DNA of 64,000 bases from Alkalispirochaeta sp. (GTDB lineage Bacteria > Spirochaetota > Spirochaetia > DSM-27196 > Alkalispirochaetaceae). The notes beneath the pieces were generated by a model, which did no database searches, was not told the origin of the DNA, and saw only the letters and a list, made by a program, of their open reading frames with translations. Positions within the stretch are counted from its first letter, which is position 1. Every line of letters begins with the position of its first letter. The DNA lies in NCBI GenBank assembly GCA_965601925.1, contig OZ271854.1, positions 1,152,001 through 1,216,000 on the forward strand. Direction: 5' to 3'. Positions 49,692 through 64,000 of the stretch are shown here, piece after piece. The position numbers were made by a program, and so were the translations under genes.

Positions 49692-50372
49692 CTACGTATC
49701 GACGTCCATCGAATCTTCATCGACGACGCCGTATAACGCGTAGGGTCGATGCAGTGTCGCGGCCCAATACTTATCTCCATAGGACCAGTGCCACCACTCC
49801 GACGGGTAGTTCACGAACGCGGCGGAGGTCATCGCGGAGTACAAAATCCGTCGCAGCTCGATAGCCTCATCGCTAATGTTGGTCGCGTCGGAGAACGTCG
49901 CATTGTCCGTCTCGATGGGAATCGCGTTGTACTCGGTTCCCAGGTCAAGCTCCTCTCCGCTCTTTACGTCGCGTAAGGTCAGATCTACCGCGGCGCCGGT
50001 CGGATGCGGCGCAACATCGATGGGGGCGCACAGTTTGTCCGTCTCCTCGACGATCTGTGCTTCGGAGAGTTCCGGATAGGTCGTTCGTATGTGATGCGTT
50101 ACGCTCTCATAGGATATCATCTGCCGTCTTCTCGGACGGTATCCCTCTTTGATCAGGAATCCAAGGTGGGGCGGTAGTTGATCGGCGGCGACTCGAAGTT
50201 TCGACGCTACCGTTGAGCGCACCTTGGAAAAGTGCGTACTACGGTTCGATATCTGCCTTCGCGTGCGATCAATCACAAACCCCAACTCGGAGAGATCTAC
50301 CATGGGGTCGCGGCACTCTCTCACCGCTACACGACGTACCATCGAGTCCCCGATGCTCAAGAAATCCTTCAT
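49692..50372 (-). CDS. M15 D-Ala-D-Ala dipeptidase (VanX/DdpX-like)
   Basis: EGYRP, PHPTGAAVD, NYPSEWWHWSYGD. Confidence 0.88.
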   Translation of the reverse strand: MKDFLSIGDSMVRRVAVRECRDPMVDLSELGFVIDRTRRQISNRSTHFSKVRSTVASKLRVAADQLPPHLGFLIKEGYRPRRRQMISYESVTHHIRTTYPELSEAQIVEETDKLCAPIDVAPHPTGAAVDLTLRDVKSGEELDLGTEYNAIPIETDNATFSDATNISDEAIELRRILYSAMTSAAFVNYPSEWWHWSYGDKYWAATLHRPYALYGVVDEDSMDVDT

Positions 50373-54189: not shown

Positions 54190-55437
54190 ATGAAACGGAG
54201 GACGTTTCGACGCGGTATCGTATCGGCCGCGCTGTTGTTGATCCTGTCGACCGCGCTCTTTGCGTCGGGGCAGGATGAGGGTGCGTCGACCGTTACGATT
54301 TGGCATCCCTTTCCCGAGGAGACGCACTTCATTCAGCACGCCGCGGCCACGTGGAATCGAGAGCACCCCGATCGCTTTGCGGTGGAACCGCGCTTTATTC
54401 CATTCGGCGACCTCAAGCGGGAGATAACGCAGTCGGTGGTAACCGGAGAGGTGCCCGATATCTACATGGTCGACAACCCCGACCACGCCTCCTTTGCCGC
54501 CTCGGGCTCCTTGTACGATCTCACCGATTGGGTCGAGGAGTGGGGTGAGGCGGACGAATACTTCCCCGGACCGTGGAACTCGACGATGTGGGAGGGGCGT
54601 AACTTCGGCGTACCGATCGACTCCAACACGATCTTGCTCTACTACAATCGCGACGCCTTTGATCGCGCCGGTATCGACTCTCCGCCCCGGACGTGGACCG
54701 AGCTGCGCGAGTACGCCGCAACCCTTACTAACCCGGCCGAGGAGTTTCGCGGCATCGCCTTCTCGGCGGTGCGGACCGAGGAGGGGACGTTTCAGTTTCT
54801 ACCCTTCGTCCAACAGGCCGGCGGCACTCTTGAGCGCGTAAACGGCGCGGGCGGAGTCGCGGCGCTTCGACTGTGGAGCGATCTGGTCGAGGGCGGATAC
54901 GCCTCGCCGGAGGTGGTCAATATCACGCAGAACGAGGCGGTCGGGCTGTTGGCAAGCGGAAATGTGGCGATGGCTATCTCCGGACCGTGGAGTTTGGGCC
55001 TTATGGAGGAGGTCGAGTTCGAGTGGGGTCTCGCCCTCCTCCCGGTAGTGGAAGAGGTCGGCGTTCGATCCTCCGCTATGGGGGGCTACAACATGGCGAT
55101 CATGGCCGACAGCGACAACCCGGAGGAGGCGTGGGAGTTTATCACGTGGCTCCAGTCTCCGGAGAACATCAGACGATTCTACTGGGATTACCTCGGCGGC
55201 GCCCGCATCCCCTCGCGCGCCGATGTCGCCGGTGAGGCGGGACGGTGGGTCGAGGACGAGCGGCTCCAGGTGTTCATCGAACAGCTCCGGTACGCCTCCC
55301 CACGCGGTCCTCATCCCCAGTGGCCGGCGATTTCCGACGCGATCCAGGTGGCGATCCAGAAGGCCCTTACCGGTCAAGCGTCGCCCGAGGAGGCGCTCGA
55401 CGAGGCCGCCGCCGCAATTACGGAGATCTATCAGTAG
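54190..55437 (+). CDS. Sugar ABC substrate-binding protein
   Basis: Signal ...LFASG, PDI..DNPD, LYYN, EEGTFQF.P, GPW. Confidence 0.93.
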   Translation: MKRRTFRRGIVSAALLLILSTALFASGQDEGASTVTIWHPFPEETHFIQHAAATWNREHPDRFAVEPRFIPFGDLKREITQSVVTGEVPDIYMVDNPDHASFAASGSLYDLTDWVEEWGEADEYFPGPWNSTMWEGRNFGVPIDSNTILLYYNRDAFDRAGIDSPPRTWTELREYAATLTNPAEEFRGIAFSAVRTEEGTFQFLPFVQQAGGTLERVNGAGGVAALRLWSDLVEGGYASPEVVNITQNEAVGLLASGNVAMAISGPWSLGLMEEVEFEWGLALLPVVEEVGVRSSAMGGYNMAIMADSDNPEEAWEFITWLQSPENIRRFYWDYLGGARIPSRADVAGEAGRWVEDERLQVFIEQLRYASPRGPHPQWPAISDAIQVAIQKALTGQASPEEALDEAAAAITEIYQ

Positions 55438-55518
55438 CCTCCATTCGCGGTCGATCGCGCCGGATGGGGCCCTCGATCCGGGGCCGACGGCCGGATCATC
55501 GGAACATAGACGATTCGT

Positions 55519-56403
55519 ATGAAGCGCTATAACCCGGAACGCACGTATCGGTGGTTCATGGCACCGGCACTCCTGTACCTCGTGGTGTTCGTCTTGTATC
55601 CGATCCTCCACAACGTCACCTTGAGCCTACGGGAGGTAACGGCGGCCAACATCCGCGCGGACCGTCATCCCTTTGTCGGTTTGGCAAACTATCTCGAGCT
55701 GTTGCGAGACGACGCGTTTTGGAGGGTGTTGGGGAACACGCTTCTCTTCACGACGGCGAGCATCACCTTTCAGTTCTCCATCGGCTTTGCCGTTGCGCTC
55801 TATCTCAACCGACGATTCCCCGCCCGGGACTTTGTACGGTCGGCGGTCATCCTCGGGTGGGTGCTCTCTCCCATCGTGGTCGGGACCATCTGGCGCTGGA
55901 TACTCAATAGCGACTTCGGACTGTTGAACTTCCTCATGCGCCGACTCGGGATGATCGACCGGAACATCAGTTGGCTGCCCAGGCCCGGCTCGGCGATGGC
56001 GGGAGTCATCATGGCGAACGTGTGGCTCGGCATACCCTTCAACATGATGCTCCTCACCGGCGGGCTGGCAAACCTTCCCGAGAGCGTCTTCGAGTCGGCG
56101 ATGATCGACGGTGCGAGCCGCACCCAACGGTTCTTCCGTATCACGATACCGCTCCTCCGACACACGATCGCGGCGACGGTGATGCTCGGTTTCATCTACA
56201 CGTTGAAGGTCTTCGATCTCATTTGGGTCATGACTACCGGCGGGCCGGTCAACGCCACGACGACGTTGTCGGTGTGGTCGTACCGCCTCTCTTTCGTGCT
56301 GTTCACCTTCAGCGACGGCGCGACGGCGGCCAATATGCTCTTTGTGCTGACGATGATACCGACGGTGATCTACATCTATTGGTTTGCCCGGGAGGAGTCG
56401 TGA
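55519..56403 (+). CDS. Sugar ABC permease (MalF-like)
   Basis: FVGLANY, W.GIPF, ESAMIDGA, GGP.NAT. Confidence 0.93.
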   Translation: MKRYNPERTYRWFMAPALLYLVVFVLYPILHNVTLSLREVTAANIRADRHPFVGLANYLELLRDDAFWRVLGNTLLFTTASITFQFSIGFAVALYLNRRFPARDFVRSAVILGWVLSPIVVGTIWRWILNSDFGLLNFLMRRLGMIDRNISWLPRPGSAMAGVIMANVWLGIPFNMMLLTGGLANLPESVFESAMIDGASRTQRFFRITIPLLRHTIAATVMLGFIYTLKVFDLIWVMTTGGPVNATTTLSVWSYRLSFVLFTFSDGATAANMLFVLTMIPTVIYIYWFAREES

Positions 56404-57242
56404 AGCGGAGAAACGGCACAAGGACCGGAAACCGCCGCGTCGCGATCTATACCCTCGGCGCATTCCTCGCCATGGGTATCTATCTCGTACCGGTGTTCTG
56501 GATGTACGTATCGGGTCTCAAGACGGAGCGGGACGTCTACGCGATCCCCCCGACCCTTATACCCGATCCGATTACCTTCGAACCGATTTTACAGACCCTC
56601 GCCTCCGGGGGCGGGCGTTACTTTGCCAATAGCGTGCTGATCGCGACGGCCAGTACCGCCTTGACGCTCATTCTCGCAGGATGCACCGGGTTTGCCGTTG
56701 CACGGATGAAAAGCCGCATCGTCTCTCCGGTGGTACTCATCTTTCTCATCGCTCAGATGCTGCCAACCGTACTCCGAGTGACGCCGCTGTTCGTACTGTT
56801 CAATCGGGCGGGCCTCATCAACAGCTACGCCTCGGTCATCCTCGCCAACGCGTCCCTCACGATACCGTTTGCGGTTATCATGTTGCGCACCGCCTTTCTC
56901 GCCGCACCGACGGAGATCGAGGAGGCGTCGTTGATCGACGGCTGCGGACTCCTCCAATCCTTCCTCCGTATCTCGATACCGATGAGCAAGGCGGGATTTG
57001 CCGTGGTCGGCGCGATGTCCTTTGTCTGGTCCTTCGGCGACTTCGTGTTTGCCCTCTCGTTTCTGAGCCGCGAGAGTATGCATCCCGCCACGTTGGGACT
57101 CTACAACTTCATCGGCGCCGAGGCGACGAGCTGGAACAACGTCATGGCCTTTGCCGGGTTGACCGCTCTCCCTCTCATCGCGCTTTTCATGGTCCTCCAG
57201 AAACAGATCGTGAAGGGGCTGTCGACCGGGTCCTTTCGGTAG
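56400..57242 (+). CDS. Sugar ABC permease (MalG-like)
   Basis: GTG overlaps the upstream stop; EEASLIDG, FGDF.FA. Confidence 0.9.
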   Translation: MKRRNGTRTGNRRVAIYTLGAFLAMGIYLVPVFWMYVSGLKTERDVYAIPPTLIPDPITFEPILQTLASGGGRYFANSVLIATASTALTLILAGCTGFAVARMKSRIVSPVVLIFLIAQMLPTVLRVTPLFVLFNRAGLINSYASVILANASLTIPFAVIMLRTAFLAAPTEIEEASLIDGCGLLQSFLRISIPMSKAGFAVVGAMSFVWSFGDFVFALSFLSRESMHPATLGLYNFIGAEATSWNNVMAFAGLTALPLIALFMVLQKQIVKGLSTGSFR

Positions 57243-57407
57243 TTGCCCCGGCGCGCCTCGCAGACGCGCTCGCGCGCAACGGGTCGTTGCTACCGATTCA
57301 TCGTCGTATTGCCCGAGTATCCGCCTCAATAACGCCGACATCGGGAACATTTACCAAACGCGGAATATTCAATTATTATAGTGCTATCATGTAATAGAGG
57401 TACTAAA

Positions 57408-59633
57408 GTGGGTCGTTTCCGGTTTCATCTGAGAATTGCGCTGCCTATATTTTTTACTATTTTCGTCGCATTAACCGGAATATCAATTTTTATAATCAAC
57501 CTTTACTTCTCCATTCGCTCCCTCGAGCGCGTAAGCTTCGATTACCTGACACAGACCAGCCAAATCGTTCTGGAAAACACCGTCGGCCACCTCTCGCCGG
57601 CGGCACGTTTCGCCGAGATGAACGAGACGTTGCTCAACCCTGAGCATTACAACCGAAATTACTTCGACGTATTCAATACCGTTACGATTCCGCAATTCTC
57701 CGTCTACGATCAATTCGCGCTGATCTATTTCGGCTCGACGACCGGCGACTTCTGGCTCAACGGTGTGGAGCTCGATCTCACCGTACAGACTCAGGCGATC
57801 GACCGTAAGATCGACGGCGAGGCGTCGGATGCGTTCCTTCGAGACGCGCGGGAGCTTCCTCGCGACACGCCGGAGGAGATCGAGACCGTTGCGCGGACCA
57901 TCGCGCCGTACATCGAGACGATCATCTATCGACGCGACGAGGGGGGCGCGATCGTTGCCGCCGAGCCCGATATCGACTATATCTACGATCCCCGATGGCG
58001 CCCGTGGTACGCAAACGCCGTAGACCGGGGCAATGCGACGTGGAGCTCGGTCTACACATTCAGCTCAAGCGGACGGTTCTACGCATCGGGGAAGGTCGGC
58101 GTCACCGTCTCGGCGCCGGTTTACGCGTCCGACGGAGTGCTTGCGGGCGTCGTCGGAATCGACATCGTTTTGGAGCAGCTCAGCGACTTCCTCGAAACGC
58201 TCACGATCGGGCAGAACGGTCGCGCATTCCTCTTTACGAACGATGGACAAGGCGTGGCATACGGATCTCTGCGCATCGCGGAGGACGGCATTCAACCGGA
58301 AGTCCTTCAAAGTATGACGACCATCGACGACATGGCGGCCCGCAGTGCTTTTACGGCGCTCCAACAGCGGGTCGGTGCCGAAACCGGCGGCGTCTTCACA
58401 CGACTCGACGAGAGCCACCAGTTCCGCTTCGATATGGACGGGCGGACCTATCTCGCCGCGTTTGCACCCCTTCAAGACCCTCGCGTGCCGCCGTGGAACG
58501 TGGGGATCGTCGTGCCGCAGGACGACTTTGTGGGCGAGCTGATATCGACCTACTTCATCACCGCCTCGGTGTCGGTGGCGACACTCGTTCTTGTCATCCT
58601 CGTCTCGCTGTACATATCGAGCATGATCACGAAACCGATTCGTCAACTGACCGCCGAGGCCGATCGTATCCGCAACTTGGAGTTGGACGGGGCGATCGTA
58701 GCCGCAAGCCCCTTTACGGAACTTCACAACATGACCGAGGCGTTCGAGCGTATGAAGTCGGGTATTCGCTCGTTCAAGAAGTACATTCCGAGCGACTTGG
58801 TGAGCTTTCTCATTCGCAGCGGACAAGACGCGGTGCTGGGAGGAAAGACGCAAGAGGTATCCATCTTCTTCTCCGACGTCGCCGATTTCACGACGATCGC
58901 GGAGACGCTGACACCGAATGAGCTGGTTAATCACTTGGGAGATTATCTGGGAAACTTCAGCGGTATCATCGCCGATACCGGCGGCACGGTTGACAAGTAC
59001 ATCGGCGACGCGGTCATGGCCTTTTGGAACGCCCCCACATCGGTGGCACAACACGCTCACGCGGCGTGTCTGTCGGCGATCCGTTGCCGTCAGAAGCTCA
59101 TTGCGTTGCGCCGAACGTGGAAGGAGAGCGAGCTACCCCTTCTGTATACGCGAATCGGACTCCACGTCGGCGACGTGGTTGTCGGCAACATGGGCAGCGA
59201 AGAACGCCTCAACTACACGATCCTCGGGGATCCGGTAAACCTTACCAGCCGGCTGGAGGGACTCGCAAAGACGTACGGCGTCGTGATACTGGCGAGCGAG
59301 GACATTCGCGCGCGTACCGAGGATGCCTTTGCGTTCCGCCGCATCGATCGCGTCATGGTCAAGGGTAAAACCATCCCCGTCACCGTGTATGAGTTGGTCG
59401 GCGAACGCGATCGTTGTACCGACGAGATTACCCGGTGGATCGAGACGTATGAACGCGGTCTCGAGGCGTACTTTGCGCAAGCCTGGGACGCGGCCGAAGC
59501 CGATATGAAACGCGTACTTGAGATGCGTCCCCGCGACCGTGCCGCGTCGCTCTTTCTCACGCGGATAGAAAACTTCCGATCCGCTCCTCCCGGCGCCGGC
59601 TGGGACGGAGTGGCGCAATTTACGACAAAGTGA
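57408..59633 (+). CDS. Membrane class III adenylate cyclase (TM-dCache-TM-HAMP-cyclase-TPR-like tail)
   Basis: YDPRWRPWY Cache motif; ITKPI..L HAMP; FSDVADFT, DKYIGDA, GD.VN..SRLE. Confidence 0.92.
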   Translation: MGRFRFHLRIALPIFFTIFVALTGISIFIINLYFSIRSLERVSFDYLTQTSQIVLENTVGHLSPAARFAEMNETLLNPEHYNRNYFDVFNTVTIPQFSVYDQFALIYFGSTTGDFWLNGVELDLTVQTQAIDRKIDGEASDAFLRDARELPRDTPEEIETVARTIAPYIETIIYRRDEGGAIVAAEPDIDYIYDPRWRPWYANAVDRGNATWSSVYTFSSSGRFYASGKVGVTVSAPVYASDGVLAGVVGIDIVLEQLSDFLETLTIGQNGRAFLFTNDGQGVAYGSLRIAEDGIQPEVLQSMTTIDDMAARSAFTALQQRVGAETGGVFTRLDESHQFRFDMDGRTYLAAFAPLQDPRVPPWNVGIVVPQDDFVGELISTYFITASVSVATLVLVILVSLYISSMITKPIRQLTAEADRIRNLELDGAIVAASPFTELHNMTEAFERMKSGIRSFKKYIPSDLVSFLIRSGQDAVLGGKTQEVSIFFSDVADFTTIAETLTPNELVNHLGDYLGNFSGIIADTGGTVDKYIGDAVMAFWNAPTSVAQHAHAACLSAIRCRQKLIALRRTWKESELPLLYTRIGLHVGDVVVGNMGSEERLNYTILGDPVNLTSRLEGLAKTYGVVILASEDIRARTEDAFAFRRIDRVMVKGKTIPVTVYELVGERDRCTDEITRWIETYERGLEAYFAQAWDAAEADMKRVLEMRPRDRAASLFLTRIENFRSAPPGAGWDGVAQFTTK

Positions 59634-59656
59634 CGGACCTGTGCGGTGGAGGCGCT

Positions 59657-60508
59657 ATGAGTAGTATCCGAATTGTGAGGATCGTTTTCGCAGCGATCGT
59701 TGTCTCGACGCTGGGTATTCCGTTGTATGCCCAAGAAGATTTTTCACGCTATCCGCCGGATATCCGGAGAATCAAAGAGCGCGGCTACCTCATCGTTGCA
59801 ATGCATTCGTCGAATTTCAGACCGTACATGTTCGAGGACCCGGATAACCCGGGGGAATTGATCGGCCACGAGATCGACTTAGCACGCGATGTCGCCGAGG
59901 GCCTCGGTGTCGATCTCGTGTTGGATCGCGAGGCGGGGTCCTTCAACGAGATCCCGCGGCGCGTCGCCGAGCGCCACGCCGACGTGGCAATATCGCTGTT
60001 GAGCCGGACGCTTGCGCGAGCGCAGTTCGTCCGCTTCACCACGCCGTACATCATTGTGCAGCCGACGATCGCGATTCACCGTATTAACGTGTCGGTGTTC
60101 GACGTCGATCTCAACGATCCGGTCGCCTCGCTGAACCGTACCGCGGAGCGGGTCGCGGAGCCGGAGGGCAACGCGTACGTCACGATCGCTCGTAACATCT
60201 TTCCCAACGTAGAGCTCGTCGAACTGGAGAACTGGAACGCCGTCTATGACGCGGTGCTCTCGCGAGAGGTCACTTTCGCGCTACGGAGCGAGGTGGGCGT
60301 CGCGAACTTTCTCTTTGAGAACCAGGAACAACAGATCAATCTGCAGACGATTCCGCTCAATGAGCCGCGTTACGAGGATCCGCTGGCCATGGCGGTGCAC
60401 CCGGACGACGTCCATCTTCTCCATTGGCTCAATGTCTTCATACAGGACGTCCACGGAACGATCACCGGACAGGAACTGCTGACCCAATATGCGCAATACT
60501 ATGAGTAA
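59657..60508 (+). CDS. Amino-acid-type substrate-binding protein (family 3)
   Basis: Signal; I.RIKERG.L.VA, G..IDLA..A..LGV, SRT..RA..VRFT.PY. Confidence 0.88.
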   Translation: MSSIRIVRIVFAAIVVSTLGIPLYAQEDFSRYPPDIRRIKERGYLIVAMHSSNFRPYMFEDPDNPGELIGHEIDLARDVAEGLGVDLVLDREAGSFNEIPRRVAERHADVAISLLSRTLARAQFVRFTTPYIIVQPTIAIHRINVSVFDVDLNDPVASLNRTAERVAEPEGNAYVTIARNIFPNVELVELENWNAVYDAVLSREVTFALRSEVGVANFLFENQEQQINLQTIPLNEPRYEDPLAMAVHPDDVHLLHWLNVFIQDVHGTITGQELLTQYAQYYE

Positions 60509-61310
60509 CGCAGCCACCTGCAGACGGCTCTGGATCGTGCTTGCACTGACGGTATATGTCGCCGCATCGATCCACGGACAGACGATTCTCCGGGAAGTCC
60601 AGGAGAACGGAGAGCTTCGCGGCGGGATCGTCGATGGGGATCTCTACCCGTTTGTGTACCTCCGCGGCGGTGTGTGGGACGGATACGAGATAACGCTGAT
60701 GCGGGAGATCGCGGCCGAGCTCGGCGTGACGCTTTCGATTATTCCCTTTGAGAGTCGGGATGCGCTCCGGGAGGCGGTCGCCGACGGGGACATTCACGTG
60801 GCCTTCTCGAAGGTCTTCCGCGACCTCGACAACAGCGAGAGGGCGTTTCAGACGTCGCCGGTCGCGTCGCTCGATCTGATGATCGTCGCGAATCGGACGG
60901 CGTACAGCGCCGGACGTACCGGCGGAACGCTCTCCGGCGATCTGTTGCGCGGCGCCGTCCCGGTCGCGGTGGCCGACGAGGCGGCGTTCGTCCGCGAGGT
61001 ATCGCGCACATATCCGCGCGCCGACCTGTCGATCGTCGAGAGTCGCGAGCGACTGTGGCGTGGGGTCGAGTCGGGCGACTTTGTCGCAATCGCTCTCGAC
61101 GAGGCGTCGGTCTATCGATACTTCGTAGAGCATCCGGAACGGGGCATTCAACTTCGCGTGCTTCCGCTGCCGACCTCCACTGCGGTGGTCGGCCTCGTTC
61201 CGTGGCGCGACGACTTTCTGTGGGAGTGGGTAAACATTCTCGTCGAGGGGCAAGGCGACCCAGCGACGGTCGGAGAACTCGTCGAGCGGTACGAGTTCGG
61301 CACGAGGTAA
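60501..61310 (+). CDS. Second family-3 substrate-binding protein, divergent
   Basis: Signal; L.EVQENGELRGG, YPF...GYE..L..IA..LGV, V.DG.IHVA. Confidence 0.8.
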   Translation: MSNAATCRRLWIVLALTVYVAASIHGQTILREVQENGELRGGIVDGDLYPFVYLRGGVWDGYEITLMREIAAELGVTLSIIPFESRDALREAVADGDIHVAFSKVFRDLDNSERAFQTSPVASLDLMIVANRTAYSAGRTGGTLSGDLLRGAVPVAVADEAAFVREVSRTYPRADLSIVESRERLWRGVESGDFVAIALDEASVYRYFVEHPERGIQLRVLPLPTSTAVVGLVPWRDDFLWEWVNILVEGQGDPATVGELVERYEFGTR

Positions 61311-61320
61311 GGAGTATTCA

Positions 61321-62637
61321 ATGACGGTTGCACCAAAACAGAGAGGCGCCTTCGCGCGAATCGTAAAAAGCCCACTCGTAATAATCGGGGCGATGGTCGG
61401 CGGTATCCTCATCGGTATCGCCGCGCAGGAGCGCGAATGGGCGTTTCAACTCTCGACGGCGATCGCACCGATCGGACAGGTCTATCTCAACCTTCTCAGG
61501 ATGACGATCTTTCCCATCCTCATCAGCGCCATCGTTACATCGATCGGCAAGATTTTCGGCGACGATGAGAGTCAACGCTACCTAACGCGCATCGTCGTGT
61601 ACTCGCTCCTCTTCCTCTTCGTGACCAGTATCGCCTCGCTTATGGTGAGCCTCGTCATTCAACCCGGCGGCGGCTTGTCGCAGGAGGCGCAAATCACGTT
61701 GGGACGCGCCCTCACGGCCGCCGATCAAAGTGGCGAGAGCCGCGCGATCATTCAGGAGCGCCAAGGCATTTTCTCGTTCTTCGATCAACTGATCCCTCAG
61801 AACATTTTCGCGTCAATGGGCAGTGGTGCGAGCCTCCAGATTCTGTTTTTCAGCATCATGCTCGGCGTCGCCACGGGATTTCTCCACGGGGAGCAACGGA
61901 GGTACATGCTGGGCATGACCGAAGCGCTCTTCAAGGCGTTCTTTACGATCATCGAGTGGATTATGTATCTCCTCCCCTTGGGGCTGTTCTGCCTGCTCGC
62001 GGGTCAGATCGCCACCACCGGCCTCGAGGTCATCATCGCGATGGCGAAGTTCGTCGTGGTCGTCTACGTCGTGTCATTCATCGTGTTCGTCGCCTCGGCG
62101 ATCGTCATATCGGTGTCCTTGCGCGTCGGCGTATTTCGCGCCGTCACGGCGCTCAAGGAATCGCTGTTGATCGCGTTCGGCACGCAAAGCACCTTCGCCT
62201 CGATGCCCGCGGCGATCGAAGGGTTGTCGCAGGAGCTGGAGGTCGACGAGGAGCTCGTCAACCTCGTTACCCCGCTCGGTGTCGTGGTGAGCCGTTTCAG
62301 CATGATCATTCTCTACGGCGTGGCGACGATCTTCGCGGCCCAGTTGTACAATATTCCGCTCGATTTCGGACAGTTACTCGTTGCAACGATACTCGTAGTG
62401 TTCGCGGCGATCGCCGGTGCCGGCACACCGGGAATCGTGAGTCTGGCAATGATAAGCATCGTGTTCGGCCCCCTCGGTCTTCCGAGCAACGCAATCGTCA
62501 TTCTGCTTCTCGCGGTGAATCCGGTTATCGAACCGATTACCACCATGACGAACATCTTTGCGGTGTCCGCGACGACCGCTTTCATTGCCGGCCCCCACAA
62601 GAAACGGGAGGGTTCGGCCGTTGAAGAGTACGCGTAA
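61321..62637 (+). CDS. DAACS/SLC1 dicarboxylate-amino acid:cation symporter homolog, divergent
   Basis: G..YL.LL.M...P, LIP.NIF, LQILFF, P.G.F.L.A, AF.T.S..A.MP, G..G.PG. Confidence 0.88.
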   Translation: MTVAPKQRGAFARIVKSPLVIIGAMVGGILIGIAAQEREWAFQLSTAIAPIGQVYLNLLRMTIFPILISAIVTSIGKIFGDDESQRYLTRIVVYSLLFLFVTSIASLMVSLVIQPGGGLSQEAQITLGRALTAADQSGESRAIIQERQGIFSFFDQLIPQNIFASMGSGASLQILFFSIMLGVATGFLHGEQRRYMLGMTEALFKAFFTIIEWIMYLLPLGLFCLLAGQIATTGLEVIIAMAKFVVVVYVVSFIVFVASAIVISVSLRVGVFRAVTALKESLLIAFGTQSTFASMPAAIEGLSQELEVDEELVNLVTPLGVVVSRFSMIILYGVATIFAAQLYNIPLDFGQLLVATILVVFAAIAGAGTPGIVSLAMISIVFGPLGLPSNAIVILLLAVNPVIEPITTMTNIFAVSATTAFIAGPHKKREGSAVEEYA

Positions 62638-63643
62638 CACACACGTTGCCATTCTACGCGGCGGCATCTCATCGGAGGACTATCTCTCGCGACGTTCGGC
62701 CGGAGTCGTGGAGGAGGCGTTGCGTTTAAGCGGCTATCGCGTCGAGGTACTCGATTGGGTCGCCGACGGGTCGATCCGGCTTTCGGAGACGGGCGAAGGG
62801 CGCGATGTCAACAGTTGGCCCTCGCTGGTGCACTGTTTTGCTGAGTACCGACCGGACGTCGTCTTCAACACGCTGCACGGAGAGCGCGAGAACGCCGGAC
62901 AAGTCCAAGGTTTTTTCGAACTTGCCGGCATCCCCTTGACCGGCAACGGCATCACGCCGTCGGTGATCGGGATGGACAAAGTGCTTACCAAGGACGTATT
63001 CGATATCTTGTCGGTCGTCCATCCCAGGGATGTGCAACTGGGATTTCCGCGCTACGACGATGTGATGCGCTCGGTCGCGCGACATCGTAACTCGGGCGTC
63101 GGATACCCCTTTATGCTCAAACTCGCCCACGGCGGCTCCAGTTCGGGCCTCGACTTGATCGAAGACGAGGACGCCTTCATCTCAACCTGGGAGCGGTGGG
63201 CCCAACGCGTCGAGGACGCGTCGGTCATGGCCTACGCCGAGGAGTACGTCGACGGGCCGGAGTATTGCGTCGGCACATTCGGCCATTGGAGGCTGCCGGA
63301 TATCACGATACTTCCCATTGCGAAAATTGAGTTCGAAGGGCGATACTTCGACAAGAATATCAAATTCGAAAACAGATACCACGTCAACTGCGGCCACGAG
63401 CTGGCACCGCAACACCAGTTTCACATGCGACGGGTGGCGATGGACGTGCACCGCCATTTGAGGTTCGTCGGATTCAGTAGGATCGATTTTCGTATCAGGG
63501 ACGATCGTATTTACGCGCTCGAGGTCAATACGCATCCCGGATTGAGCCCGTCGAGCATCATTCCCAACAGCCTGGCGTGTTCCGATCTGACCATGCAGGA
63601 GGCCGCGTCGCTCCTCGTGGAGTGGAGTATCTCACCTCCCTGA
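62621..63643 (+). CDS. D-Ala-D-Ala ligase-like ATP-grasp enzyme
   Basis: GGISSE, LHG, MDK..TK, GGSS.G, EEYV.G.E, RIDF, EVNT.PG; TTG start overlaps the DAACS 3' end. Confidence 0.85.
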   Translation: MKSTRNTHVAILRGGISSEDYLSRRSAGVVEEALRLSGYRVEVLDWVADGSIRLSETGEGRDVNSWPSLVHCFAEYRPDVVFNTLHGERENAGQVQGFFELAGIPLTGNGITPSVIGMDKVLTKDVFDILSVVHPRDVQLGFPRYDDVMRSVARHRNSGVGYPFMLKLAHGGSSSGLDLIEDEDAFISTWERWAQRVEDASVMAYAEEYVDGPEYCVGTFGHWRLPDITILPIAKIEFEGRYFDKNIKFENRYHVNCGHELAPQHQFHMRRVAMDVHRHLRFVGFSRIDFRIRDDRIYALEVNTHPGLSPSSIIPNSLACSDLTMQEAASLLVEWSISPP

Positions 63644-64000
63644 GGCACCCGATCCTCTCATGACTCCGATGTGCGTATCCCTACCCGAGCGAGCTCGCGC
63701 GAGATCGTAACGAGGGACGAGAGCACGGCGATGTGGAACGTCGAAGAGCGAGCAACCAACGCCTCGTACACCGGTCTCGATACGTGGGCGAGGCGACATC
63801 CTCCTGAAGCGACGATCGACGTTCGGTGGGTCGTCGCCCCCAACCACGGGAGGGTACCGAGAACGGAACCGACGCCGAACGCCCCGAGGGAGAGGTCGCC
63901 GACCGTCTCGCTCGCCGCGCCGGCAACGACGATCCGAAGCGCGTCGTCCGCCGTCGATCGCAGCGATACCGATGCTCCGGGCGCGAGATCCTCATACCCG

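Follow-up and report, generated by a model that had tools for sequence, protein, structure and literature searches.

Only TRAP, TTT, and now TAXI-GltS transporters are known to use a soluble substrate-binding protein (SBP) in secondary transport (PMC12344293, Discussion). In the TAXI-GltS system of Bordetella pertussis, described by Jaques et al. in 2025, the SBP gene is translationally coupled to that of an elevator-type amino acid carrier; the elevator mechanism is proposed as what permits SBP use, and new classes are called for as a test (PMC12344293). Here we describe a five-gene operon in a 64,000-nucleotide stretch of the Alkalispirochaeta sp. genome (assembly GCA_965601925.1, contig OZ271854.1, positions 1,152,001 to 1,216,000; the window hereafter) which encodes a predicted membrane adenylate cyclase, two family-3 SBPs, a carrier of the DAACS/SLC1 fold, and a Ddl-like ATP-grasp ligase. 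The gene content, motifs, conserved linkage, and fusions incline us, on balance, toward a binding-protein-dependent DAACS/SLC1 secondary importer with a linked sensor and a downstream enzyme. DAACS/SLC1 is a classic family of elevator carriers, and human glutamate transporters have their bacterial model in it, so an SBP-fed branch of it would be a direct test of the elevator proposal.

Pairing of family-3 binding proteins with the carrier

The operon consists of the following genes:

57408..59633, + strand, predicted membrane class III adenylate cyclase of 741 amino acids (aa), ordered as transmembrane (TM) helix, dCache_1, TM helix, HAMP-like linker, cyclase; Pfam dCache_1 and Guanylate_cyc
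59657..60508, + strand, SBP1, family-3 binding protein of the partner subfamily; Pfam SBP_bac_3, signal-like N terminus
60501..61310, + strand, SBP2, divergent paralog of SBP1; Pfam SBP_bac_3
61321..62637, + strand, DAACS/SLC1-fold carrier of a distinct subfamily; Pfam SDF (PF00375)
62621..63643, + strand, accessory Ddl-like ATP-grasp ligase of a subfamily of its own; Pfam Dala_Dala_lig N and C

All five genes are real and intact, and all their open reading frames (ORFs) lie on the + strand. An earlier note, made from the sequence of the window alone, had described five co-oriented genes that overlap or lie under 25 bp apart, with two family-3 SBPs and neither an ABC (ATP-binding cassette) permease nor an ATPase, and this description holds: the cyclase and SBP1 genes are separated by 23 bp (an alternative GTG start of SBP1 at 59630 overlaps the cyclase stop), SBP1 and SBP2 overlap by 8 nt, SBP2 and the carrier gene are 10 bp apart, the carrier and ligase genes overlap by 17 nt, SBP_bac_3 is matched twice, and neither ABC component is present in the operon. 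A purine-rich, ribosome-binding-like stretch accompanies four of the five chosen starts, the exception being that of SBP2, which overlaps the SBP1 stop.

The same note had proposed, as one of two alternatives, an SBP-dependent secondary transporter of a non-TRAP type, and at the level of sequence this proposal is supported in part, by a near-obligate SBP-carrier pair, by fusions, and by conserved gene order. The first locus set comprised 79 annotated loci (the locus of the window plus L002, 68 loci from metagenomes, and 9 genome regions), short duplicates (15) and the ordinary DAACS loci L004-L010 (7) having been dropped; L078 had no carrier match, which left 78, a few of which are almost the same. 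In 63 of the 66 loci that have 400 bp or more of sequence before the carrier, a family-3 SBP gene immediately precedes it, and in all 30 loci that extend 3 kb to either side (the well-flanked loci) one lies no more than 3 kb away. An SBP was likewise present in all 21 loci of a later set from 20 spirochaete genomes, some of which are possibly sources of proteins already in our homolog lists. In a control of 37 PF00375 loci with flanks up to ~1.5 kb, a family-3 SBP was found at 3/3 loci of the subfamily and at 0/34 others; the detector used did pick up the ABC-type SBPs of the host genome (G000; 5.05 Mb, single contig). The neighborhood search that the note had suggested returned both the cyclase-SBP-DAACS-ligase combination and SBP-DAACS fusions: the full order of cyclase, SBP, SBP, carrier, and ligase recurs in two other spirochaete genomes, G098 (locus L086) and G752 (L176), and L002, L011, and L014 share the four genes that follow the cyclase.

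Of 20 long proteins scanned among the 150 representatives, five were SBP-carrier fusions, five were carrier-SBP fusions, three were carrier-dCache-cyclase fusions, and seven showed the carrier domain only. The five N-terminal fusions read leader, SBP, one TM helix, carrier, an arrangement that places the SBP outside the membrane. C-terminal carrier-SBP fusions occur in L099-L101, L174, L175, and L177 and in P0091, P0095, P0109, P0113, and P0127; those of them that were examined have no extra TM helix, and their SBP domain is probably cytoplasmic. In L099-L101 the fused domain has lost the ligand Arg; it is possible that the C-terminal SBP domain acts as a feedback sensor. In a 750-aa SBP-DAACS fusion (P0070), which possibly belongs to a separate fusion family, the carrier has diverged much further and forms a long branch.

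The partner SBPs form one subfamily. Arg and Asp, each in 67 of 77 rows, occupy the positions that we take to contact the alpha-carboxyl and alpha-amino groups of the ligand, a Ser contact is present too, and 58 of 65 partner SBPs carry a hydrophobic leader. SBP1 keeps S113 and R121 and has Ser211 where 67 of the 77 aligned rows have Asp. SBP2 is 25% identical to SBP1 and may have altered ligand binding or none. We considered and rejected two ABC assignments for these proteins. A polar-amino-acid ABC system elsewhere, which the note had raised, does not call for them: each of the three polar-amino-acid permeases of the host genome (TIGR01726) has its own adjacent SBP, and no such permease was found in loci L001-L101. 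The sugar-type ABC genes upstream from the operon also have their own binding protein, identified by eye. Taken together, the SBP and the carrier very probably act as one unit, and it is fairly probable that this unit really transports.

Other family-3 and neighboring binding proteins were noted along the way. In L013, L014, L021, L022, and L038, the SBP-carrier pair is preceded by a Peripla_BP_6 binding protein and lies near ABC exporter genes (peptidase C39 or HlyD type), and the host genome encodes a chemoreceptor-like 536-aa ORF that ends in a family-3 SBP domain (G000:C1:990385-991995).

A DAACS subfamily with altered sodium sites

The carrier has the elevator fold with scaffold and transport domains (PF00375 at 2e-69); its model (pLDDT, the predicted local distance difference test score, 88.6) is a GltPh-type protomer, with Foldseek TM values of ~0.7 to GltTk, GltPh, and ASCT2. 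The DAACS sodium-site residues are N310, M/S311, D/E312, and D/E405 in GltPh numbering; D394 is the determinant for the amino group and R397 that for an acidic side chain, so that Arg397 sets acidic versus neutral specificity (PMC12668577). In the carrier, S324-R325-F326-S327 replace the NMDG motif, and E404, T407, T408, N411, and V415 stand at D394, R397, T398, N401, and D405, respectively. It carries neither the Na+-coupled GltPh-type signature (S324, R325, F326, and V415 being at the four positions) nor the H+-coupled GltP-type pair L311 and N405 (R325 and V415). The contacts to the amino acid backbone, among which we presume T398 to belong together with D394 and N401, are retained as T408, N411, and, with a conservative change, E404. 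T407 points to a neutral amino acid as the substrate.

These changes are the signature of the whole subfamily: NMDG has become xRF/YG/S, the Na1/Na3 aspartates are lost, and most amino acid backbone contacts are kept. In 62 locus-derived rows, Arg is at the M311 position in 49 and Asp at 312 or 405 in none; D/E394 is kept in 54, T398 in 55, S278 in 49, R397 in 32, and N401 in 19, and N405 occurs in 28. Arg311 is found in 99 and D/E394 in 123 of 146 representatives. The carrier had been called degenerate, which is right as regards the altered motifs and wrong as regards decay: a decaying pseudogene was rejected because the altered motifs are conserved across the subfamily, over more than 140 representatives. 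Arg325, at the M311 position, could possibly occupy the Na2 site and stand in for the cation. With all canonical sodium ligands replaced and Arg at Met311, the subfamily amounts to a natural experiment in ion coupling.

A homolog search with the carrier returned 83 proteins, 59 of them at 34-94% identity before a drop to ≤28%, and a profile search of 50%-identity representatives extended the subfamily to at least 150 clusters (E < 1.2e-105). Named hosts are Spirochaetota, Cyanobacteria, Gammaproteobacteria, Undibacterium, Magnetococcales, Thermodesulfobacteriota, and Wallbacteria; the closest named relative is in a Spirochaetales metagenome-assembled genome. The distribution is patchy: 0/21 other genomes of the same family, 5/99 in the order, 7/401 in a phylum sample, and 21/401 in a class sample searched with a broader profile (the last three counts include G000). 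The operon's carrier is the sole PF00375 match in the host genome at E ≤ 1e-40, and a single-protein scan of genome contigs with it gave one locus only. No match was found in plasmids at 1e-40, and an Atlas search with the carrier found generic PF00375 clusters only. Tandem carrier duplications occur in L018, L059, L184, and L185, one L018 copy being more diverged, and might form heterotrimers.

Linked cyclases and partner enzymes

The cyclase retains D490 and D534, which we take to be the metal-binding aspartates, K530 and T604, presumably the ATP-specifying pair (K530 being the lysine of DKYIGD already pointed out in the earlier note), and N611 and R615, the presumed transition-state residues; with CyaB as its best match, it is predicted to be a class III adenylate cyclase. 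PctA is the best solved match of its dCache domain, which has all five positions of the dCache_1AA amino acid motif (Y193, R198, W200, Y216, and D252, for Y121, R126, W128, Y144, and D173 in PctA numbering; PMC8915833). The motif was absent from the nine other host cyclases checked (9 of 13 other tblastn matches). As the dCache domain has its own complete amino acid motif, the cyclase does not depend on the SBP for sensing its ligand, and the proposed feeding of cyclic AMP (cAMP) signaling by an SBP/transporter co-sensor has to be qualified in that respect; the link to cAMP signaling itself is supported by carrier-dCache-cyclase fusions and by a clade of linked cyclases. In a quick tree, the linked cyclase domains cluster apart from the nine other host cyclases with moderate support (30 rows; SH-aLRT, the Shimodaira-Hasegawa-like approximate likelihood ratio test, 88). 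The cluster includes one nonadjacent paralog and excludes the divergently transcribed L041 gene; within the tree, the operon's cyclase groups with the other two ligase-type cyclases (SH-aLRT 94).

A dCache gene flanks 24 of the 78 loci (17 of the 30 well-flanked ones), and its output is a cyclase, SpoIIE, GGDEF, or none; 14 of the 26 dCache proteins in the first set have the amino acid motif, and those of the HAMP-only group do not. The later set has a dCache cyclase in 19 of its 21 loci, and in 6 it is fused to a carrier; the two loci without one are short. Single-chain carrier-dCache-cyclase genes occur in L100, L101, L174, L175, L177, L179, L180, and L183, and also in L099, where the chain is broken within dCache; the fusion is seen too in protein clusters P0115, P0128, and P0171, possibly overlapping with these nine spirochaete genomes. 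Some cyclase-fused carriers keep the substrate residues, and others are degenerate beside an intact copy, the fused copies of L099-L101, L179, L180, and L183 having lost the substrate residues and adjoining an intact carrier. Such natural carrier-sensor-cyclase fusions are material for understanding how transporters become receptors. In L032, L051, L052, L057, L063, L065, and L069, the gene after the carrier encodes a dCache-HAMP protein of 480-500 aa with a conserved short tail, no catalytic output, and no amino acid motif. The gene of a further class III cyclase of the host genome (G000:C1:1468250-1470774) runs toward those of a polar-amino-acid ABC permease and an SBP, in convergent orientation.

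The enzyme slot of the locus varies as well. An Asp/Glu racemase flanks 23/78 loci of the first set and 13/21 of the later one and a Ddl-like ligase 6/78 and 1/21, and the two never occur together; the earlier note had tied the system to the ligase, which is one of two alternative enzymes and the less common one. All 10 racemases tested scored above the TIGR00035 cutoff and kept both cysteines, on which ground a one-way L-to-D racemase was rejected; the cysteate racemase CuyB was the best-scoring model for 9 of the 10 and was rejected because all 10 fell below its cutoff. In 58 rows, Arg397 carriers have a racemase in 19 of 32 cases and a ligase never, and the ligase rows have Thr or Leu at 397 (5/5); this match counts as a single observation because Arg397 has one origin on the tree, and statistical coevolution of residue 397 with the racemase was rejected for that reason. 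In loci L004-L009, all from same-genus genomes, a canonical NMDG-type DAACS gene without SBP is followed by an Asp/Glu racemase.

The ligase keeps its catalytic residues (E19, H86, K120, K167, S174, K248, R287, E301, N303, and S312), identified through what we take to be their Escherichia coli equivalents, and the ATP-grasp catalytic residues are invariant in 44/44 members of its subfamily, which has 45 database members at E ≤ 1e-60. It scores 160 against the Ddl family cutoff of 245.65 bits, and with Phe249 at the Tyr216 position it does not have the Tyr216 triad. Small as it is, this ATP-grasp subfamily stands on its own, with invariant residues Y21 and E90 (44/44) and H305 (42/44) and mostly Asn at the first-site Glu68 position. 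Phe at 216 confers depsipeptide activity on E. coli DdlB (PMC3378904). Position 216 is variable in the subfamily (Y in 15, F in 14, and H in 6 of 44), so that it is not a Van-type signature, and a Van-type resistance ligase was rejected. A canonical Ddl is encoded elsewhere in 4/4 genomes tested (in G000 beside a probable Mur ligase, identified by eye). With this and the subcutoff score, the ligase was rejected as the housekeeping Ddl of peptidoglycan synthesis. The finding that 19 of 59 carrier homologs lie on contigs identical in size to that of a ligase-subfamily member suggests colocation, and the Ddl-clade carriers of L011 and L017 have as neighbors the genes of an alanine racemase and of an enzyme of the D-amino acid dehydrogenase type. 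Together, the racemase and the ligase as partner enzymes suggest a route for the uptake or signaling of environmental D-amino acids.

The operon is bordered by the following features:

57243..57407, + strand, AT-rich leader with a sigma70-like site at 57350-57379 and a ribosome-binding-like AGAGG
63658..64000, - strand, 3' end of a convergent gene outside the operon, whose 905-aa product combines an NTT/TLC-like carrier domain with a cyclic nucleotide (cNMP)-binding region

The AT-rich leader reported in the note is evident from a GC content of 35% at 57340-57500 against ~60% for the window. Sigma70-like sites numbered 4 against 2.5 expected by chance, which is not significant, and the promoter and terminator scan did not rise above chance. 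Co-oriented genes at 54190-57242 (+ strand), ending 165 bp before the cyclase, encode, as identified by eye, the binding protein and two permeases of a sugar-type ABC system, with no ATPase among them; a D-Ala-D-Ala dipeptidase gene (Peptidase_M15) lies at 49692-50372 (- strand), ~7 kb upstream from the operon. The convergent gene extends past the window and spans G000:C1:1215658-1218375 in full. A homologous 3' end is found convergent after the ligase in L002 and L176 as well and not in L086. It is possible that the encoded protein is a cAMP effector, maybe a cAMP-gated carrier.

Proposed mechanism, alternatives, and described systems

In the importer that we favor, periplasmic SBP1 would capture an alpha-amino acid, as its motif suggests, and hand it to a carrier without Na1/Na3 sites in which the Arg at Met311 may replace the Na2 cation. 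Thr397 together with Glu394 of the carrier would indicate a neutral amino acid. The partner enzymes of the family point to D-amino acid metabolism, and the substrate here could be D-Ala or a relative, an identification that we regard as doubtful. In the cytoplasm, the Ddl-like ligase might use the imported amino acid to make a dipeptide or depsipeptide of the D-Ala-X type, with a purpose other than housekeeping. The dCache cyclase, whose gene is linked to that of the carrier, may sense the same amino acid pool directly and, as the fused homologs imply, may be physically coupled to the carrier, with cAMP reporting the state of the substrate or the carrier; for this step we see an even balance. 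A bolder version, which strikes us as improbable, would have a sodium-independent SLC1-type complex with a built-in Arg for the coupling cation, family-3 SBPs feeding it D-amino acids, the adenylate cyclase as a physical subunit, and the ligase making a nonwall D-amino acid dipeptide, so that uptake and cAMP synthesis would be the work of one machine; in it, a transport-dead fused carrier copy could coassemble with an active copy.

A number of observations weigh against the importer. D312 and D405 are absent from all 62 subfamily rows and N401 is present in 19 of them, which leaves the energy source unexplained. SBP1 is without the usual amino-group Asp (Ser211) and SBP2, with Asn in its place, without the carboxylate-binding Arg. 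No dCache gene is present in 13 of the 30 well-flanked loci, and neither racemase nor ligase in 13 of the 30. The likely cytoplasmic SBP domains of the C-terminal fusions are not explained by simple import, the Arg397-racemase match comes down to one independent pair, and the racemase link is not specific, because ordinary DAACS genes without SBP (L004-L009) have one too. The correlations of SBP with carrier distances (r = 0.93 over 46 pairs) and of carrier with ligase distances (r = 0.86 over 19 pairs), which count in favor of the importer, partly reflect shared descent.

One alternative is a receptor in place of an importer, namely a transporter-derived sensor that takes the SBP's ligand and regulates the cyclase (or SpoIIE or GGDEF) with little or no net transport. 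That every row has lost the sodium-site residues is consistent with it, as are the fusions of carrier, dCache, and cyclase known from nine spirochaete genomes and from three further, possibly overlapping protein clusters, the fused copies in L099-L101, L179, L180, and L183 that have lost their substrate residues alongside an intact copy, and the range of linked outputs, which takes in cyclase, SpoIIE, GGDEF, and HAMP-only proteins. We nevertheless consider a receptor unlikely: 13 of the 30 well-flanked loci have no dCache gene at all, the residues that contact the substrate are retained and vary with the partner enzyme, the dCache domain with its own amino acid motif needs no upstream receptor, and the cytoplasmic enzymes of the operon imply a substrate that is transported.

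The enzymes can also be read in the opposite direction, with a D-amino acid or D-dipeptide made by the racemase or ligase, released by an uncoupled carrier, and sensed outside by the SBP and dCache as a density-type cAMP signal. Synthetic enzymes with intact catalytic residues, a carrier without ion-coupling residues, probably cytoplasmic SBP domains in some fusions, and a sensor in the same operon would all fit such self-signaling. In TRAP systems, however, it is the periplasmic SBPs that make transport run inward (PMC11574862), the racemases, with both cysteines kept, show no evident one-way L-to-D bias, and the dCache and SBP motifs would seem to fit free amino acids better than dipeptides; export is the reading to which we attach the least weight. 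Scarcely more credible is a loose, coregulated cluster of independent parts on an amino acid theme, the carrier being a stand-alone H+ symporter or uniporter. That the cyclase is equipped to sense amino acids unaided, that uncoupled and H+-coupled DAACS exist (PMC12668577), and that the enzyme and sensor slots vary speak for it. Against it stand the near-obligate SBP adjacency compared with 0/34 controls, the repeated fusions, the absence of an orphan ABC permease, and the linked cyclase clade set apart, if with moderate support (SH-aLRT 88), from the nine other host cyclases.

Among described systems, secondary carriers have been tied to signaling enzymes before: DctA-DcuS reportedly forms a transporter co-sensor, and in the SLC5-STAC kinases CbrA and CrbS a secondary carrier is fused to the signaling enzyme. 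Unlike these, the operon has an SBP and a ligand-binding dCache cyclase, and Pfam scans found no STAC domain. A TTT binding protein is likewise said, in the title of one study, to take part in signal transduction. With GltPh, GltTk, and ASCT the carrier shares its fold, the amino acid backbone contacts, and a neutral residue at 397, as is presumably the case in ASCT-type carriers; it differs in having xRF/Y in place of NMD, no D405, Arg at 311, and an SBP partner. The uncoupled ancestral aspartate transporter keeps NMD, unlike this carrier (PMC12668577). PDB entries for this group of carriers are 9bgz, 6r7r, and 8qrs. The cyclase has all five motif positions in common with the dCache_1AA receptor PctA of Pseudomonas aeruginosa and differs from it in its class III cyclase output and in traveling with, and sometimes being fused to, a carrier (PMC8915833). 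The ligase shares its ATP-grasp catalytic residues with DdlB and the D-Ala-D-Lac ligases and has Phe at 216 (PMC3378904).

A polar amino acid ABC importer does not match the locus, which has no permease or ATPase, nor the genome, which has no orphan permease. The likeness to TRAP and TTT lies in SBP-dependent, ATP-independent uptake via an elevator carrier; these systems use DctP, TAXI, or TctC binding proteins with DctQM or TctAB membrane parts, none of which was detected in the five operon proteins (PMC11574862, PMC5812351). Only SBP_bac_3 and SDF families are matched, which places the pair outside TRAP, TTT, and TAXI-GltS, and the coupling of an SBP gene to a carrier gene, together with fusions of the correct topology, is what an SBP-dependent secondary transporter would be expected to show. 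Full-text literature searches turned up no DAACS-SBP system or DAACS-cyclase fusion in titles or abstract openings; reviews, supplements, or TCDB may nonetheless mention one. The nearest parallel is TAXI-GltS, where again a carrier family thought to work alone is joined by an SBP, SBP-carrier fusions occur in other bacteria, and the case rests on context and fusions (PMC12344293). There, a TAXI-type SBP serves GltS of the ESS family, whereas here a family-3 SBP is paired with DAACS/SLC1; as far as the main text of that study goes, no linked cyclase, racemase, or ligase is described, and DAACS, GltP, and SLC1 are absent (PMC12344293). The SBP-DAACS-cyclase system is conserved and apparently undescribed in print; it would work like TRAP, TTT, and TAXI-GltS, and it belongs to none of them.

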